Part shown: positions 9,412-43,540 of the stretch, piece after piece | Layout: each line of letters begins with the position of its first letter | Numbering within the stretch: position 1 is the stretch's first letter | Origin: a virus | Taxonomy: Duplodnaviria > Heunggongvirae > Uroviricota > Caudoviricetes | Length of the DNA: 43,679 nucleotides | IMG/VR virus record: IMGVR_UViG_2711768009_000009 | Reading direction: 5' to 3' (one strand) | Notes under the pieces: model-generated | The model's input: the letters and a program-made list of their open reading frames with translations, nothing else | What the model was told of the DNA's origin: nothing | Database searches by the model: none | Program-made: the position numbers and the translations under genes

Positions 9412-9668
9412 NNNNNNNNNNNNNNNNNNNNNNNNNNNNNNNNNNNNNNNNNNNNNNNNNNNNNNNNNNNNNNNNNNNNNNNNNNNNNNNNNNNNNNNNN
9501 NNNNNNNNNNNNNNNNNNNNNNNNNNNNNNNNNNNNNNNNNNNNNNNNNNNNNNNNNNNNNNNNNNNNNNNNNNNNNNNNNNNNNNNNNNNNNNNNNNNN
9601 NNNNNNNNNNNNNNNNNNNNNNNNNNNNNNNNNNNNNNNNNNNNNNNNNNNNNNNNNNNNNNNNNNNN
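9412..9668. other. Unresolved sequence (257 N) at the expected gin-proximal inversion crossover site
   Basis: N-run directly upstream of gin and adjacent to the alternative tail-fibre segment. Confidence 0.9.
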
Positions 9669-10475: not shown

Positions 10476-11392
10476 TTATAACTGAGATACCGTAATCCAT
10501 GTACCTCCGACTAATTTTTGCAGGGGTCTGAATGCTATAAAATCGTTTGAAGCATCAACTTTACTGTCAATCTGCAGGCCTGCCATAACATTACCGTACG
10601 CAGAGTAATATGCCCCACCGTACATTACCTGCCTGTTCTCTGCTCCCAGCCTGATATCCTGGATATATCGGGAATCCGCATCCTGCTGTGTTATACCAGA
10701 AGTGATGTTTATGTCCTGCGTCCCGTCAAAGGGAACCCCATTAATATTTCTTGGGGTGGCGAGTCTATTCGCGGCAACGGCGGTGCCGTCCGATGGCAGN
10801 NNNNNNNNNNNNNNNNNNNNNNNNNNNNNNNNNNNNNNNNNNNNNNNNNNNNNNNNNNNNNNNNNNNNNNNNNNNNNNNNNNNNNNNNNNNNNNNNNNNN
10901 NNNNNNNNNNNNNNNNNNNNNNNNNNNNNNNNNNNNNNNNNNNNNNNNNNNNNNNNNNNNNNNNNNNNNNNNNNNNNNNNNNNNNNNNNNNNNNNNNNNN
11001 NNNNNNNNNNNNNNNNNNNNNNNNNNNNNNGCGGGACCAAGACTGTTTTTTGTGGCAAGCGTCCCCAGACCAAGATAACCACGGGCCAGACGCTGGGCCT
11101 CCGCACCGGCATCAGCAATTTCTTTCAGGTTATTTTTCCGGGAAAAGGCATTCGCAGCGATAATGGCTTTAATGGACAGCGTAAGCTGGTTTAACTGCGC
11201 CTTATCCGGCTGAATACTGGCTTCAGCCAGAATATTCAGCAGTTCGGCCTGGAGAATATTCAGCCAGTCCTGACCAATCCAGCTGATACCTTTTTGTCCG
11301 TCACCTTCGGTAAACCAGGTGGTGGTATTACTCTGCGCCGGTGCCAGCGCAGGCATATTCGCCACGCCGGAATTATTATCAACATGAAACAT
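10476..11392 (-). CDS. Tail fibre protein (Mu S-like), interrupted by an N-run; constant N-terminal part 11031-11392, variable C-terminal part 10476-10799 in a different apparent frame
   Basis: N-terminal part from ORF track 10709..11392; post-gap frame translates ...AVAANRLATPRNINGVPFDGTQDINITSG...GTWITVSQL*, a tail-fibre-like repeat region ending 50 bp before the U-like gene. Confidence 0.7.
10800..11030. other. Unresolved sequence (231 N) inside the tail fibre gene at the expected constant/variable junction
   Basis: N-run; reading frame before and after is not continuous for this length, so the gap length is probably arbitrary. Confidence 0.85.
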
Positions 11393-38496: not shown

Positions 38497-38724
38497 TTAG
38501 CTGACTTGTTTCGCACCAACAGAACGGCATATTCCGCTGTAAACTTCTGTCGCACCTTCGCGATCAAGTCCGGCAGATATCACCATTCGTGTGCGGTCAT
38601 TAAATTCAAAAAGTAAATCGCCACATTCTTTATTTTCGGCCAGTGAAATCACCTTCACGTTATCGAAATTAACCAGGTAAAAGCGTCCGTAAATATCAGG
38701 AATATTAAATACCGCCATAATCAC
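38497..38724 (-). CDS. Small early protein directly after B (75 aa); possibly Kil-like by position and size
   Basis: ORF track; overlaps the B stop by 4 nt; Mu kil occupies this position. Confidence 0.4.
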   Translation of the reverse strand: MIMAVFNIPDIYGRFYLVNFDNVKVISLAENKECGDLLFEFNDRTRMVISAGLDREGATEVYSGICRSVGAKQVS

Positions 38725-39662
38725 ACCTGTGAGAGTAATTCAGGGTTGGTATAAACCTCTTTAAAGGCCGCATTAATATGTTTTTCTGTCAGCGCCGCGC
38801 CTTCACCGCTGGCGGTGAGCCACGCCTGGTTAAGCGTATGTGTCAGAACGCGTAACGCTCCCGGCTTTTCAGCGATAGCCTGCATGACGGCCAGCTCGGC
38901 CTCACCACTGATCCCCCACGCCATGGCAATGGCCAGCACATCCGCCTTTTTGGCCTTGCGAAGTTGTTTTGTACGGGCAAGACGGCTGAACAGGCGCGAT
39001 AAATCATCAAAGGCGCGGCGTCCACCTTTAAACAATCCGCGCGGGTTACCAATAAGCACCATCCCGATCCCCGTGGCGTCCTGAATTGCCCGGAGTTGCT
39101 CCAGACCGTCAATACCAAGATGATCCGCCTCATCCACAATCACCAGTCCACGCGTTCCCATCAGGCGACGGCGGATGGCGCGGGATAATGCCCCTTTGTT
39201 CGCGCGGGTGTAATCAATCCCCAGCGCATCGGCCAGCTCCAGCAGACACTCCGTGACGCTGGAGTGCGCGGGTGACAGGGTGATCATCCAGGTGTTTGGT
39301 TGCTCCTGGCAGTAATTACGGGCAGTGGCCGTTTTACCCACACCCGGTACGCCCACAATAACGTTAATACAGCCCATCAGGCGAACCGCCTGAAACAGTG
39401 CGCGCAGCTCCTGGACTGTCTGAGTTTCCACAAACTGCGGCGGTTCCGGCAGTGCGCTTTGTTTATTCCAGTTCTCATACCAGGAGCGCAGGGAAGCAGC
39501 CACAGCAGCGTTATCGCCTTTATATTTTCCCTTACGGAAAGCCGATAATGTGCCGTCGGAAATTCCCGCCTCTCTGGCGATGGCATACTGCGTCAGTACG
39601 CCGCCATCAATAAGTTCATCAATGGTCTTGATTACATCGTTAATATCGGTCATATTATTCAC
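38721..39662 (-). CDS. Mu B-like transposition ATPase (AAA+), 313 aa, GTG start
   Basis: ORF track; Walker A VGVPGVGKTAT; N-terminal HTH-like region; follows transposase A. Confidence 0.9.
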   Translation of the reverse strand: MNNMTDINDVIKTIDELIDGGVLTQYAIAREAGISDGTLSAFRKGKYKGDNAAVAASLRSWYENWNKQSALPEPPQFVETQTVQELRALFQAVRLMGCINVIVGVPGVGKTATARNYCQEQPNTWMITLSPAHSSVTECLLELADALGIDYTRANKGALSRAIRRRLMGTRGLVIVDEADHLGIDGLEQLRAIQDATGIGMVLIGNPRGLFKGGRRAFDDLSRLFSRLARTKQLRKAKKADVLAIAMAWGISGEAELAVMQAIAEKPGALRVLTHTLNQAWLTASGEGAALTEKHINAAFKEVYTNPELLSQV

Positions 39663-39735: not shown

Positions 39736-41823
39736 TCAGGCCAGCGGATCACTTTCTTTTAATTTCGCTTCGAGCAGTTGCAATCCCCGCTGGAAATTAC
39801 GCTCGTATTCTTCATCAGGTTCATCGTCAGCGACCGGTTGCTGAACGGTCACCGTATTACCCACAGGGCGGTATATGTTTTCCAGCCAGGGCTCCTGCGG
39901 CTTGTGCTCCAGCACGTTGACAACCTCATCCTCGGCATCACGGATTTTTTCCTCTGCGCGTTTACGCATGCCTTTAAGGCGCTGCTGCTGTTTGTAGTAT
40001 TCCGCGCTGACAGGGAAGGCTTCGCGTTTATTGCCGTCCCATACCGCCTCGCAAATCACGCTGCCATCCGGGCGGCGCACGGTAATTCGTTCGGCATCAT
40101 GAATGTCATAGCTGATAAGTACCTTACGGCCATGCTCGTCACGCAGCTCGGGCGCGTAGTAAATATTATTCAGCCAGCGTATTTCACAGCGTCTTACAGG
40201 GCGCTCCACCATCGGCCGGAACATATCCCGCAGTTCAACATCGGACAGCCATTCAATTTCCGTGTCCTCTTCCGCCAGGCGTTTTTTTCTGAACTCCGCC
40301 GGGCTGTAATGTTTACCGTTCGGCTTCATGGGTAATTCATCGTGCGGCCGGTTGTTGTACCACTCAACACCGTCACGAATGGCATCAATCAGTTCAGACC
40401 AGGACGGTAAATCACGCATCGCTGACTGCTGCCGGGCGTTCAGCCGTTTGCCCTGTTGCAGGGCACTGAATGCCGAGCGTAAATCGCGGTTGGTTTTACG
40501 TAACGTCTCGCGATCTGCTCCTTTCCCGAAATAGGTGCGGTATTTACGGGCTATGCGCATCGGTAATGTGCGGTTAAGCCGTTCGATAATGCCCCGTCCC
40601 TGCGGATTACCGGCAATCCCTGTCGGGTGATTAATCCCCAGTCGTGGCAGTATCCCCACAATCTCCTTATCCAGGACGTCGGCGGTTTCCCCGGAGCCAT
40701 TATCCGAGTAATACAGAAACGGTTTGCCATGATGGCGAATACCGTGCTGTATGGCACCGGCTACGGCGAAAACATTTTCAGCCAGGTCAAGGCTCCAGCC
40801 CACCACAAAGCGCGTGCCACCGTCGATAACAAAGGTCACTTCCGGTGCGAATGGCCGCCCGTGAACCGGGTGCGCGCATTTCAGCTTCATGCCGTGACCG
40901 TCACCAATCCAGACATAATTCACCGGCATTCTGGACCAGTCGCGGCGCGTGAATCCCTCAAGCTGACGGTATTCACTGCCAGTTACCCGGCCTTTTTGTT
41001 TCACCACTTCCGGCAGTTTCTTCATTGCGCGGCGAATGGTGTCATAAGAGGGCATGATATCGAGCATATAAGGCTCATCAGCGTGCCGGTGCTGCCATTC
41101 AGCAACAAAATCCTCGTAAGCCTCGGTCATTGGTCGGCCGTTTGACTGGCGATACTGCGCCAGAAATTCGGGCAGCCAGTTAATATCTTCGGCTTTTATT
41201 TCCTGGCGTTTACCCGGTGCCAGTAAAAGCAGGCGTTCAGCGGCGTTCTGTGCCTTGTTAAAGGCCGCAATCCAGCGTTTCAGCGTGATTTCACTCAACG
41301 CGCGGCTGTTTCCCTTTTTGGCGTTCGCCGTCTCAACCATTGCCACAATGCGCTCGTCCAGTTGTGATCGTGCCAGGCTGTTAACGAGGAACCGGATAGC
41401 TTTAGCGCAGCTGAAACCGGGTTGTTGCGTGAATTTCAGCACCTCACTGACGATCGCAATGCGTGCGTCTGCCACCTGGCGCTGGTTTTCAGTCAGGGCA
41501 TTGAGGCGTTCGACCATCAGTTGTGGTGATCCGCGATATGCCTCCACCGCATCAACCACGGCAGACGAGCGTCTGGCCTTTGTCACCACCGGAGCCGGTG
41601 ATTCATCGGCTTTTTGCGTCATCAGTTGCAGGGCATAACGTTCGCGTAATGCCTGCTGTGTCACTTCAGGTAAACAGTCAATGCTGTATTCAAAACCTTT
41701 AGCGCCTTTCTTGCGGCGTCTGCTGGTTTCGCTGGTTGCATACTTCCTGATTGAATAGCGAACGCCTTGCTCCGTTCCCGGCATCCCCGGTAATCCAACC
41801 AGTTCTTTAACTGAAGCAAACAT
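39736..41823 (-). CDS. Mu A-like DDE transposase (695 aa)
   Basis: ORF track; size, position after ner, DDE-core-like region ...YVWIGDGHGMK... Confidence 0.9.
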   Translation of the reverse strand: MFASVKELVGLPGMPGTEQGVRYSIRKYATSETSRRRKKGAKGFEYSIDCLPEVTQQALRERYALQLMTQKADESPAPVVTKARRSSAVVDAVEAYRGSPQLMVERLNALTENQRQVADARIAIVSEVLKFTQQPGFSCAKAIRFLVNSLARSQLDERIVAMVETANAKKGNSRALSEITLKRWIAAFNKAQNAAERLLLLAPGKRQEIKAEDINWLPEFLAQYRQSNGRPMTEAYEDFVAEWQHRHADEPYMLDIMPSYDTIRRAMKKLPEVVKQKGRVTGSEYRQLEGFTRRDWSRMPVNYVWIGDGHGMKLKCAHPVHGRPFAPEVTFVIDGGTRFVVGWSLDLAENVFAVAGAIQHGIRHHGKPFLYYSDNGSGETADVLDKEIVGILPRLGINHPTGIAGNPQGRGIIERLNRTLPMRIARKYRTYFGKGADRETLRKTNRDLRSAFSALQQGKRLNARQQSAMRDLPSWSELIDAIRDGVEWYNNRPHDELPMKPNGKHYSPAEFRKKRLAEEDTEIEWLSDVELRDMFRPMVERPVRRCEIRWLNNIYYAPELRDEHGRKVLISYDIHDAERITVRRPDGSVICEAVWDGNKREAFPVSAEYYKQQQRLKGMRKRAEEKIRDAEDEVVNVLEHKPQEPWLENIYRPVGNTVTVQQPVADDEPDEEYERNFQRGLQLLEAKLKESDPLA

Positions 41824-41825
41824 AA

Positions 41826-42056
41826 TTACGCGACCTTACGAATGTAGCGGCTGGGCCAAATCTCCTCGGGCGGCACCCCCAGGCATTCCGCGATAATCCC
41901 CTCATACTTGGGAACATGGCGGTATACCGCGTTGTACAGATTGTTCTGACCCACGCCAGCTTTACGGGCCAGCGCCCTCATGCTTCCTTCTCTGGCTCTG
42001 ACTTCCCCCAAAATTCTTTGAGGATGCCAATCAGGCTTAACTTCATTTCTCGCCAT
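41826..42056 (-). CDS. ner: Ner-like DNA-binding regulator (76 aa)
   Basis: ORF track; WHP...SMRALARKAG...NNLYNAV...PKYEGIIAECLGVPPEEIWPSRY matches the Ner/Nlp family pattern. Confidence 0.85.
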   Translation of the reverse strand: MARNEVKPDWHPQRILGEVRAREGSMRALARKAGVGQNNLYNAVYRHVPKYEGIIAECLGVPPEEIWPSRYIRKVA

Positions 42057-42086
42057 GATTCATCTATCCTAAAAAGTTACGAAATT

Positions 42087-42187
42087 TGATAACTAAACTT
42101 AGTTATCAAGTTTGATATAAGTATTGATCCACTTCTGCTTCATGTAAAGCAAAAAAAACATCTTTCTTTTGTCTATTGTGGATCAAT
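42087..42187. promoter_or_regulatory. c-ner operator/promoter region: palindrome TGATAACT-N6-AGTTATCA (42087-42108) and 10-bp inverted repeat ATTGATCCAC/GTGGATCAAT (42123-42132 and 42178-42187) flanking an A-tract
   Basis: Divergent c and ner genes flank this 185-bp region; symmetric sites visible; two GATC sites inside the long inverted repeat. Confidence 0.5.
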
Positions 42188-42241
42188 GGTTGCTGACAAC
42201 ACTAAAAGTTAATAATTTCAAATTGATAGGAAGAAAAGAAA

Positions 42242-42787
42242 ATGAACAAGCAAACAACAACATCTCTTTCTTTTCCTGGTGGTAGAAAAGAAAGCATTGC
42301 TGAGCGTCTGAAAAGGCTGATTGGCTCCCGCAGCGTCAGAGCTGCAGCAAGAGATTGGGGGCTTTCATTTTCAACACTAAACAATTATCTGTCTCGTGGC
42401 ACTGAGCCATCCTTAAGTGTCGCCCTTCAGATTGCGTCTATCGAAGGAGTAAGTGTTGAGTGGCTATGTGGATTCAGTGATGCATCACAAGTGAATCGGT
42501 GTGAGATCAAGGAAAATCAAGATGAAAGCAAGAAGATAATTATGACGATTATCAGCGCACTTGATGAAAAAGACTTAGAGCAGCTATCGAAAAATTTGGT
42601 TCTGAATGGAGCCAAGTACTTAGCTCGGTTGTTAGAGCCTGAAAATCAAGATCTAATCCGCTTAGAAGGAAGGAAAAGAATAGCTGCATTACAGCTTGAA
42701 GGTATGTCTGACGAACGCGTCAGAGAGATTTTGGAAGAAACTGAGAGAAGTCGCAAATCTAACGCGGTAGAACCAAAAGCGGGTTAA
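42242..42787 (+). CDS. Mu c-like lysogeny repressor (181 aa)
   Basis: ORF track; divergent from ner, adjacent to the left end; N-terminal DNA-binding region ...AERLKRLIGSRSVRAAARDWGLSFSTLNNYLSRG... Confidence 0.75.
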   Translation: MNKQTTTSLSFPGGRKESIAERLKRLIGSRSVRAAARDWGLSFSTLNNYLSRGTEPSLSVALQIASIEGVSVEWLCGFSDASQVNRCEIKENQDESKKIIMTIISALDEKDLEQLSKNLVLNGAKYLARLLEPENQDLIRLEGRKRIAALQLEGMSDERVREILEETERSRKSNAVEPKAG

Positions 42788-42861
42788 TAGCATTAGCCCG
42801 CATTTTGCACTATATCGAGTATTTCGCATTGTTTGGAACGCCTTAAAAGACTAAAACCACA

Positions 42862-43016
42862 GTATCAAATGAGTTGCCGATTTTATAATAAATGACTAAT
42901 TATTGCACAATCGGTATCAAATAGACCTTATCCGCACATCTAGCCATCACCTGTTTTATTTCAGTATCTTACAGGTGATTTCACCTCCTTTCACTAAACC
43001 CCTTGTCGGTATCAAA
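42862..43016. repeat. Left-end (attL-like) set of three spaced TTTGATAC(CG) repeats (reverse complement on the plus strand), putative transposase binding sites L1-L3
   Basis: GTATCAAA at 42862-42869, CGGTATCAAA at 42912-42921 and 43007-43016; wider spacing than at the right end, as for Mu attL versus attR. Confidence 0.6.
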
Positions 43017-43020
43017 TGAT

Positions 43021-43344
43021 TCACCTGGTTATATGTCGCCAGTCGATACCTTCCAGCAGCATCGCCAGCTGCGCCTGTGTAAGGAACACTTTGCCATCAC
43101 GGGCTGACGGCCAGGCGAAGCGCCCACGCTCCAGCCGTTTGGTCAGGAGGCACAGTCCGTCACTGGTGGACCACAGCAGTTTAACCTGACTGCCGCTGCG
43201 GCCCCGGAAAATGAAAACATGGCCGGACATGGGATCGTCTTTCAGCGCCGTCTGTACTTTCGCAGCCAGGCCGTTGAAGCCATTTCTCATATCGGTGATA
43301 CCGGCAACCAGCCAAATTTTGATCCCGGAAGGTAACGGGATCAT
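43021..43344 (-). CDS. tnpB: IS66-family TnpB (orf2), 107 aa, C-terminus probably altered by the prophage junction
   Basis: ORF track; MIPLPSGIKIWLVAGITDMRNGFNGLAAKVQ...HVFIFRGRSGSQVKLLW...GLCLLTKRLERGRF is a canonical IS66 Orf2 sequence. Confidence 0.85.
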   Translation of the reverse strand: MIPLPSGIKIWLVAGITDMRNGFNGLAAKVQTALKDDPMSGHVFIFRGRSGSQVKLLWSTSDGLCLLTKRLERGRFAWPSARDGKVFLTQAQLAMLLEGIDWRHITR

Positions 43345-43540
43345 CGCTTCAGTTCCTGTATCAGCAGAGTCAGGAGCTTTTCGCTGACATTGCCATTGAA
43401 GCGGAGCGTCCCGTGCCGGAACGTTACCTCACAGCTGATACTGAGGGTTTTCGGGTCCTCTGCGAGCGATTCTGGCTGTTCGGCAGCTGCATCGAGAGTC
43501 ACAGGAAGTAGCTGGGGGCTCTCTGAAGAAGGTAATAGCT
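43024..43540 (-). mobile_element. IS66-family element remnant (tnpA 3' part plus tnpB); 5' end replaced by the IS3-family end, 3' side interrupted by the Mu-like prophage
   Basis: Same element and orientation as the tnpC fragment at 3765-4265. Confidence 0.6.
43341..43540 (-). CDS. tnpA: IS66-family TnpA (orf1), C-terminal part only
   Basis: ORF track 43341..43571; the first ~10 codons of the listed ORF lie in the IS3-family terminal repeat. Confidence 0.55.

Follow-up and report, generated by a model that had tools for sequence, protein, structure and literature searches.

A candidate two-regulator early switch in the c–ner control region of a Mu-like Escherichia coli prophage

The segment at positions 42,087 to 42,187 lies in the divergent c–ner control region, where a Mu-like E. 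coli prophage has its early switch, within a 43.7-kb stretch of viral DNA (43,679 nucleotides; hereafter the window). We favor, with somewhat better than even confidence, an arrangement in which one promoter answers to two regulators at separate sites. A palindromic half-site array beside ner would be the operator of Ner, and the arms of a 10-bp inverted repeat further towards c would be half-sites for the c repressor. The region is otherwise an ordinary phage control region, an uncharacterised switch of a known sort.

By gene content, the right end of the window corresponds to the left end of the Mu-like prophage, in reversed orientation. The genes that surround the control region are:

38721-39662, minus strand: B, with Pfam matches to Phage-MuB_C and AAA
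39736-41823, minus strand: transposase A, with matches to Mu-transpos_C, HTH_Tnp_Mu_1 and rve
41826-42056, minus strand: ner, 76 aa, Ner/HTH_35 family (Pfam HTH_35, E=1e-21), heading the early operon ner-A-B
42242-42787, plus strand: c repressor, 181 aa, XRE-type HTH with recognition helix STLNNY (PHROG 3037 transcriptional repressor, E=4.5e-60)

The ner–c intergenic region (42057-42241) measures 185 bp and has 28% G+C. The window Ner is 45% identical to Mu Ner, matches the NMR structure of Mu Ner (PDB 1NEQ, E=3.7e-13), and is homologous to EnrR (PDB 7F9H/7F9I, E=2.9e-11). Transposase A has likewise retained the Mu-type, enhancer-binding N-terminal domain, with HTH_Tnp_Mu_1 recognised at residues 6-141 (E=1.3e-8). 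The c repressor matches only HTH_3 and Phage_CI_repr in Pfam, the HTH_3 match falling under the curated cut-off (E=2e-4, 21.8 bits against a cut-off of 23). It shows no similarity to Mu c (BLASTP E>2), and no S24 peptidase (autocleavage) domain was found in it. An Rfam search returned nothing relevant, and our search of the literature found no operator study and no binding or transcript data for this Mu-like prophage family.

Positions 41800-43050 are carried by 12 complete E. coli genomes at 94-99.8% identity, each time at a different chromosomal site. Homology among these 12 prophage copies ends at about 43033, and the prophage of the window is inserted within an IS66-family TnpB gene (43021-43344). 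Among characterised phages, DNA-level matches were confined to Mu-like inserts borne by Stx phages and to the Yersinia vB_YpM phages, and these matches did not cover the operator. Single-protein searches found almost no relatives, and alignment-based searches were needed. In this way 121 loci were collected from GTDB genomes, IMG/VR and metagenomes, all with a divergent ner, a gap of 180-215 bp, and c. Unique intergenic regions were present in 86 of the 121, and these served for the comparison of site class with recognition helix. The search patterns required the c helix STLNNY, so that its invariance in all loci partly reflects ascertainment.

The relatives share a common layout. From the ner side it consists of the ner ATG, four alternating half-sites, AGTATTGATCC (which holds the -10 of the putative early promoter Pe on the other strand, plus a GATC), and a variable spacer. 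Towards c it continues with CATGTAAAG (the putative Pe -35), an A-rich run, CTTTCTTTTGT, a variable stretch, and a -10-like element ~23 nt before the c ATG. On the ner side of the window, the elements are:

42075-42120: four alternating half-sites, AGTTACGAA (reverse), TTTGATAAC (forward), GTTATCAAG (reverse) and TTTGATATA (forward); proposed Ner operator
42082-42096 and 42099-42113: 32-bp near-palindrome AAATTTGATAACTAA-ac-TTAGTTATCAAGTTT, with 15-nt arms, 14/15 complementary, and a 2-nt gap
42120-42125, minus strand: putative Pe -10 hexamer AATACT, 17 bp from the -35
42143-42148, minus strand: putative Pe -35 hexamer TTTACA, with hexamer and GCTTTACA context as in Mu Pe

The original prediction had described a perfect palindrome between the divergent c and ner genes. 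Direct reading and a repeat finder both bear this out: TGATAACT (42087-42094) and AGTTATCA (42101-42108) form a perfect inverted repeat with a 6-nt spacer, and TGATAACT-N6-AGTTATCA is the core of the larger near-palindrome at 42082-42113. When the 185-bp intergenic region was shuffled 2000 times with dinucleotides preserved, no palindrome of 14/15 quality with a spacer of at most 10 arose (0/2000). Nothing else of this quality exists in the 43.7-kb window, where the 32-bp palindrome is the best overall. The four-site array in which it sits was delineated from the repeat-finder elements D1, I1 and I2, and the gap between the palindrome and the ner ATG is 25 nt.

A promoter scan of 41950-42350 returned TTTACA-17-AATACT on the minus strand as the only sigma-70-type match. 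Because this is the sole match, and because its hexamers (AGTATT being the -10 read on the other strand) and their 17-bp spacing are kept in relatives from five genera, it is very probably the early promoter Pe, with a predicted start near 42113. The palindrome would then span about +1 to +32 of the Pe transcript.

The geometry is that of Mu. The palindrome center lies 50.5 bp from where the -35 begins, in the window and in Mu alike. Mu carries TTTACA (993-998) followed by AGCTAGCTAAGT-ttttac-ACTTAGTTAAAT (1029-1058), and the Mu record annotates 991-1028 and 1063-1101, which flank this repeat, as part of the Ner binding region. D108 carries a perfect CCGTGAGCTAC-N8-GTAGCTCACGG 24 nt before its ner ATG, and in the window GATAAC-N8-GTTATC stands 25 nt before ner. 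In a three-way MAFFT alignment, the window promoter and palindrome fall in register with those of Mu. The inverted repeats of Mu and D108 are the Ner operators reported from footprinting by Tolias and DuBow and by Kukolj et al. A position as in Mu and D108, together with the fact that the element travels with the ner allele and not with c, makes the 32-bp palindrome most likely a Ner operator rather than a repressor operator.

The linkage to ner emerges from the comparison of loci. In most relatives the half-sites read GTTAnCC / GGATAAy-N8-GTTATCC / GGAATA; in the lineage of the window they read AGTTACGAA / TTTGATAAC-N8-GTTATCAAG / TTTGATATA. The four-site architecture itself is present in Klebsiella, Serratia, Xenorhabdus, Yersinia and Sodalis relatives. 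Sites of the class CGGATAA..TTATCCG (22 unique loci) always occur with Ner helices of the xPDTLKNAL type, although the transposase N-terminal helices beside them are of 13 kinds and c has 15 HTH variants. Among the 86 unique loci, TTGATAA..TTATCAA sites are confined to the Ner helix GQNNLYNAV. Two loci, L032 and L052, combine a transposase helix close to that of the window (GVRYSIRKLA vs GVRYSIRKYA) with a different Ner and sites of the CGGATAAC class, and the window and a Klebsiella locus, L021, have an identical c HTH and different half-site flanks. In E. coli relatives with an identical Ner (WP_001575658.1) and a c that is just 41% identical, the outer arms TTTGATAAC...GTTATCAAGTTT are exact and similarity breaks off immediately past the palindrome; the outer parts of the arms are invariant in E. 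coli relatives and the center is variable. By this comparison of site class with helix, the half-site array follows Ner, not A and not c.

The correlation between Ner helix and flank amounts to essentially one independent change, in the E. coli lineage, and physical linkage alone could account for which module each element travels with. Since STLNNY is invariant, the shared GATAAC core could also still be a c site. The pattern also shows a mosaic switch, in which ner with its proposed operator and c with the Pe core have been exchanged as separate modules, with the joint beside the -10.

The candidate c sites lie on the other side of this joint. The original prediction had also pointed to a 10-bp inverted repeat with its arms 45 bp apart around an 8-A tract, and to two GATC sites within the repeat. 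This description holds: ATTGATCCAC and GTGGATCAAT pair at 100% of positions across a gap of 45 nt, the A8 run is centered between the two arms, and there is one GATC per arm.

42123-42132: left arm ATTGATCCAC, in the Pe spacer beside the -10, containing GATC at 42126-29
42125-42142: 18-bp pseudo-dyad TGATCCA-cttc-TGCTTCA, occupying the Pe spacer; proposed main c operator
42151-42158: A8 run (T8 on the Pe sense strand), midway between the repeat arms and abutting the Pe -35 upstream, in an UP-element-like position
42178-42187: right arm GTGGATCAAT, a lone TGGATCA half-site containing GATC at 42181-84; proposed auxiliary c site
42190-42218, plus strand: putative weak c promoter Pc, TTGCTG-17-TAATTT

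As a repeat, this element is not exceptional. Of 2000 dinucleotide shuffles of the intergenic region, 98 contained a perfect inverted repeat of at least 10 bp with a loop of at most 100, and the repeat taken alone is thus only marginal (about 5% unlikely). The A-rich run is 1-8 long in relatives and is A6 or A7 in relatives that are >99% identical; with A6-A8 among close relatives, the spacing of the arms is 43-45 bp and not fixed.

TTGATC beside the Pe -10 is kept in 47 of 56 distinct relatives, which makes the left arm part of the conserved promoter core. Its CAC-extended form, TTGATCCAC, is found in 11/11 distinct relatives of the window's c clade, defined by the motif PSL[SN]VA following the HTH, and in 0/39 others. 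These 11 relatives span eight Ner helix types. The Pe spacer of this clade tends towards a dyad, TGATCCA-N4-TGGATCA, which is 6/7 complementary in L069 and L067 and a poor 5/7 in the window. A chromosomal sub-family whose c HTH is nearly identical carries a perfect TGATCTC-tttt-GAGATCA at the homologous place. In the Pe-spacer dyad, 11 bp separate the half-site centers, the distance typical of classical HTH dimers.

The right arm has a partner half-site matching at only 2/7 positions, effectively none, and its center lies at about -42 from the putative Pc start. In three diverged lineages, L001, L032 and L033, GTG(G/A)ATCA recurs 44-45 bp away from the left arm, at a distance of 55-56 bp to the c ATG. 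These three loci carry three different Ner types, and the c proteins of L032 and L033 are 66-70% identical to that of the window. Right-arm-type sites occur in 6/11 relatives of the window's c clade vs 1/39 others (Fisher p=1.8e-4, for a pattern chosen post hoc). A generic test for inverted repeats that flank the Pe -35 and are specific to each locus was modestly positive (self 5.86 vs cross 5.30, p=0.017). Taken together, the clade-specific CAC, the spacer dyad in relatives, and the recurrent spacing of the right arm suggest that the arms of the 10-bp repeat are likely c-repressor half-sites. By analogy, a main operator over the Pe spacer would correspond to Mu O2, and an upstream auxiliary site to O1.

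The c promoter is less sharply drawn. In many relatives a -10-like hexamer is found ~23-26 nt ahead of the c ATG. Pc failed the stricter promoter scan of 41950-42350, and among the relatives no sharp, conserved Pc could be defined, its position being poorly conserved.

Several other readings of these elements have to be weighed. The original prediction came close to an account in which the palindrome and the long repeat are both c operators, O1-O3-like with a bend between them, and in which the same sites form the transposition enhancer. This account gains from the conservation of the c helix STLNNY wherever the GATAAC core is conserved, from the ability of a site at +1 to +32 to repress Pe as well, and from the resemblance of two sites and an A-tract ~0.9 kb from the prophage end to Mu O1-O2. 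We nevertheless consider it unlikely, as the palindrome tracks the ner allele rather than the c allele and the sequence specific to c clades lies elsewhere, in the Pe spacer and the right arm. Of the predicted repressor operators, then, the 10-bp arms stand as likely c sites through their linkage to the c clade, and the palindrome is better read as a Ner operator. The predicted bend site survives in part: an A-tract does lie between the arms, but no match to the IHF consensus WATCAANNNNTTR (with at most 1 mismatch) was found in 42057-42241, and the length of the A-run is variable. In Mu, c and the transposase share a DNA-binding domain, and the operators hence double as the enhancer. Here that sharing is absent, c being XRE-type and unrelated both to Mu c and to the transposase N-terminus, and A keeping the Mu-type domain; the logic is therefore not transferable, and the proposal that the operator doubles as an enhancer as in Mu is unsupported. 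A different placement, in which the transposase binds the ner-proximal half-site array through its Mu-type N-terminal domain and the array itself is the transposition enhancer, would fit the linkage of the array to the ner-A module, and A, with its HTH_Tnp_Mu_1 domain, should bind some internal site. We regard it as very unlikely, given that CGGATAA..TTATCCG stays constant over 13 transposase recognition helices, that L032 and L052 pair a near-window transposase helix with another site class, that the Mu enhancer lies upstream of Pe and not in the leader, and that chromosomal relatives without a transposase keep GGATAAYCC-like sites. The palindrome might instead act as RNA: a stem-loop in the 5' leader of the early transcript could alter its stability or the translation of ner. 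For the leader (42115-42040) a fold of -15.9 kcal/mol (z=-2.6) is indeed predicted, comprising a 10-bp hairpin at the 5' end and another stem across the ner start region, but any DNA palindrome yields such a hairpin. In L032 and L046, moreover, one half-site is flipped to direct orientation, which keeps the protein half-sites and destroys the hairpin, and the palindromes at the same place in Mu and D108 are known protein sites, in line with the annotation of the Mu record. An RNA role is accordingly very unlikely.

The right arm invites a simpler explanation, namely that only the left arm functions, as part of the conserved Pe core, and that the right arm and the 10-bp repeat are a chance or lineage-specific echo without a role. 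A repeat of this length in 98 of 2000 shuffles, a right arm that is missing in 5/11 relatives of the window's c clade and has no partner half-site, and an arm spacing that varies over 43-45 with the length of the A-run all fit such an echo. Against it stand the constant spacing of GTG(G/A)ATCA in L001, L032 and L033 despite c divergence and differing Ner, and the distribution of right-arm-type sites (6/11 vs 1/39). We find this explanation doubtful. Methylation could be added to any of these readings without excluding them: Dam acting on the Pe GATC and the right-arm GATC would tune early transcription or c binding. The left GATC lies at -13 to -16 of Pe, within the proposed c half-site TGATC and abutting the -10, and it is kept in 47/56 relatives, all of them Dam-positive Enterobacterales. 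It is conserved, however, only as part of the larger invariant block AGTATTGATCC, the right GATC is kept in just 14/56 distinct relatives, and Mu Pe has no GATC. With 124 GATC in 43.7 kb, two in 185 bp are not an excess. We read the conservation of GATC as a hint toward Dam control and not as evidence, since it is not specific, and we consider such tuning improbable.

In our preferred reading, with Ner at the palindromic array and c at the repeat arms, a transposition enhancer may exist, and nothing points to these candidate operators as that enhancer. The most interesting loose end of the region is a conserved element, CTTTCTTTT, present in four copies:

42162-42170, plus strand: first copy
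42233-41, minus strand: second copy
42266-74, plus strand: third copy
42286-94, minus strand: fourth copy

This CTTTCTTTT/AAAAGAAAG quartet brackets the putative c promoter and overlaps the opening 50 nt of the c reading frame. Its nucleotide sequence is conserved in 47/48 relatives linked to a transposase, and chromosomal c/ner pairs without a transposase lack it. One could imagine that a Mu-type repressor was replaced by an XRE-type repressor in this widespread enterobacterial family, that operator and enhancer thereby came to lie on separate DNA, and that the quartet is the enhancer or another cis element linked to transposition. We hold this to be quite unlikely as a whole.

Three further candidates were tried and rejected. 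RNAalifold gave no consensus structure for the CTTTCTTTT repeats as RNA, and the pairing named for them, although 90% kept, involves almost invariant sequence and is thus uninformative. Co-variation of the transposase N-terminal helix with the ner-proximal sites or with CTTTCTTTT was set aside, the helix being highly variable and both DNA elements constant. Nor was the idea kept that the ner-proximal half-sites are copies of the transposase end-binding sites, as the end-site classes (GTATCAAAT vs AGTGCAGAAT) are uncorrelated with half-site class.

From the features, their positions, their conservation and their linkage to alleles, we propose the following promoters, protein–site assignments and regulatory consequences. 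Pe, starting near 42113, would drive ner-A-B. Ner monomers would bind the alternating TTGATAAC-type half-sites (42075-42120) and limit early transcription, as happens in Mu and D108, and Ner may also block a rightward promoter-like site inside the palindrome. The TGATCCA(C)-type arms would serve as half-sites for the XRE-type c, with the left arm and its degenerate partner forming the 18-bp pseudo-dyad in the Pe spacer. Bound there, c would exclude RNA polymerase and lysogeny would be maintained. The right arm, 55 bp away center to center, across the A-tract and beside the weak Pc, would act as an auxiliary site for cooperative c binding and possibly for autoregulation.

This arrangement provides a testable map of the lysis-lysogeny switch for Mu-like prophages that are common in E. 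coli (including O157), Klebsiella, Serratia, Yersinia and their relatives. The Mu paradigm of repressor operators that are also the transposition enhancer cannot simply be transferred to them, given a repressor of another family. The mosaic pattern of the switch is also the type of natural experiment that assigns sites to proteins.

Comparison with known systems places each element in context. As in IS10 and IS50, a GATC lies at the edge of the -10 of a promoter that drives a transposase. In those elements the GATC is inside the -10 and dependence on methylation has been demonstrated, whereas in the window it occupies -13 to -16 of the putative Pe. The resemblance to the lambda, 434 and P22 CI (XRE) systems lies in an HTH repressor divergent from a small Cro-like regulator, a proposed 18-bp dyad on the lytic promoter with centers 11 bp apart, and an auxiliary site near -42 of the repressor promoter. 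The window differs in having one reasonable dyad and a lone half-site rather than three tandem operators, in a c without S24, and in a second regulator that is of the Ner family and has its own proposed operator, with no competition for sites.

With Mu O1-O3/IAS the window shares a place between the c and ner genes, ~0.9 kb in from the left end, with one proposed repressor site on the Pe core, another upstream, and bendable DNA between them. Its XRE-type repressor has no homology with either Mu c or the transposase N-terminus, and the IHF consensus is lacking; with such a repressor, sharing of sites between repressor and transposase is not expected.

The likeness of the palindrome is to Ner-family operators. 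Crystal structures of EnrR, a Ner-family protein, show monomers paired on an AT-rich palindrome (PMC9023278). Edwardsiella EnrR differs in being a global nucleoid-associated regulator. Its consensus, AATAAATNATTTATT, is short, it carries an extension at the N-terminus, and it is not a phage switch protein. The D108 Ner operator has in common with the window an inverted repeat with an 8-bp spacer at nearly the same distance from ner (24 nt vs 25 nt); its half-site CCGTGAGCTAC is GC-rich and unrelated, and the D108 repressor is Mu-type.

In Mu, the Ner operator consists of inverted 12-bp repeats with a 6-bp spacer, just downstream of the Pe start. Mu and the window agree in the gene order c, Pe, ner-A-B, in a -35 of TTTACA with a 17-bp spacer, and in a palindrome of 30-32 bp that starts at +1/+2 with its center 50.5 bp from the -35. 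They differ in the half-site, which is TTTGATAAC in the window and TAGCTAAGT in Mu, with a common TAACTAA/TARCTAA core at other spacing, and in the four alternating half-sites of the window, which make up three overlapping dyads. The window half-sites thus do not resemble the Mu/D108 consensus, a mismatch that is expected with a Ner only 45% identical, as Mu and D108 also differ mutually. What the window does share with these operators is an inverted repeat of ~30 bp that lies beside the ner gene, sits downstream of the putative Pe start, and changes with the Ner allele.

The start of c, the XRE-type repressor gene (42242-42787, plus strand) that lies divergent to ner, is surrounded by a short repeat present in four copies:

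42162-42170, plus strand, CTTTCTTTT/AAAAGAAAG copy
42233-42241, minus strand, CTTTCTTTT/AAAAGAAAG copy
42266-42274, plus strand, CTTTCTTTT/AAAAGAAAG copy
42286-42294, minus strand, CTTTCTTTT/AAAAGAAAG copy

The quartet spans 133 bp: the first copy precedes Pc, the weak putative c promoter, the second overlies the c ribosome-binding site, and the remaining two fall within the first 50 nt of the c ORF. None of 5000 shuffles reached a count of four in 244 bp. Nearly all distinct transposase-linked relatives (47 of 48) carry at least three copies; six chromosomal relatives lacking a transposase carry 0-1. In the conserved KES, serine is always encoded by AGY (21 of 21), which suggests a constraint at the nucleotide level. 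RNAalifold yielded no RNA structure for the repeats; the pairs are invariant. The quartet might be an enhancer, serve translational control or form a further protein-binding site.

Comparison with relatives L002, L003 and L013 placed the joint of two mosaic modules at or adjoining the -10 of the inferred early promoter Pe (window 42114-42130), with ner and its leader palindrome (42082-42113) forming one module and the Pe core and c the other. In L003-type relatives this place is taken by another Pe core that looks stronger, TTGAAA-17-AATAAT. A further promoter-like site overlaps the palindrome:

42094-42121, plus strand, promoter-like site TAAACT-16-TATAAG

Its -35 is central in the palindrome and its -10 stands back to back with that of Pe. 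In Mu, a second, Ner-controlled c promoter has been described; by analogy, TAAACT-16-TATAAG could be a second c promoter under Ner control. Between the arms of the 10-bp inverted repeat (42123-42132 and 42178-42187), the A-run at 42151-42158 reads A8, A7 or A6 across prophages more than 99% identical (window; L001, L004, L006, L063), a length polymorphism as expected from slippage, which changes the spacing of the two arms.

Divergent c-like/ner-like pairs without a downstream transposase were found in seven metagenome contigs of up to 2 Mb (L075, L078, L088, L089, L091, L095, L097). In these loci, the gene after the pair encodes an amino-acid permease (AA_permease_2, PotE/CadB-like), and clear TGATCTC-N4-GAGATCA dyads accompany GGATAAYCC-like sites. 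The permease-linked pair looks like a phage switch domesticated in the bacterial chromosome. One further locus, L028 (NZ_JBHSON010000307.1, a 574-bp contig labelled Actinomadura rugatobispora), is 98-100% identical at the protein level to a Klebsiella-type prophage c/ner region and is probably contamination of that assembly.

The window itself contains N runs, masked or unresolved, at 2371, 9412-9668 and 10800-11030. The prophage, which ends at ~43033, is inserted in an IS66-family element (window 43021-43679). Features near this end are:

42862-42870, 42914-42922 and 43009-43017, three GTATCAAAT direct repeats
43021-43344, minus strand, TnpB_IS66 ORF, whose last codons extend into the prophage end
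43341-43571, small ORF upstream of the TnpB_IS66 ORF

Among relatives, the end repeats are of either the GTATCAAAT or the AGTGCAGAAT class, independent of the class of the ner-proximal half-sites (four in the window, 42075-42120). Measured from the prophage end, the GTATCAAAT repeats lie at ~16, 111 and 163 bp, a spacing similar to that of Mu L1-L3; they are probably the sites at which the transposase binds the end.
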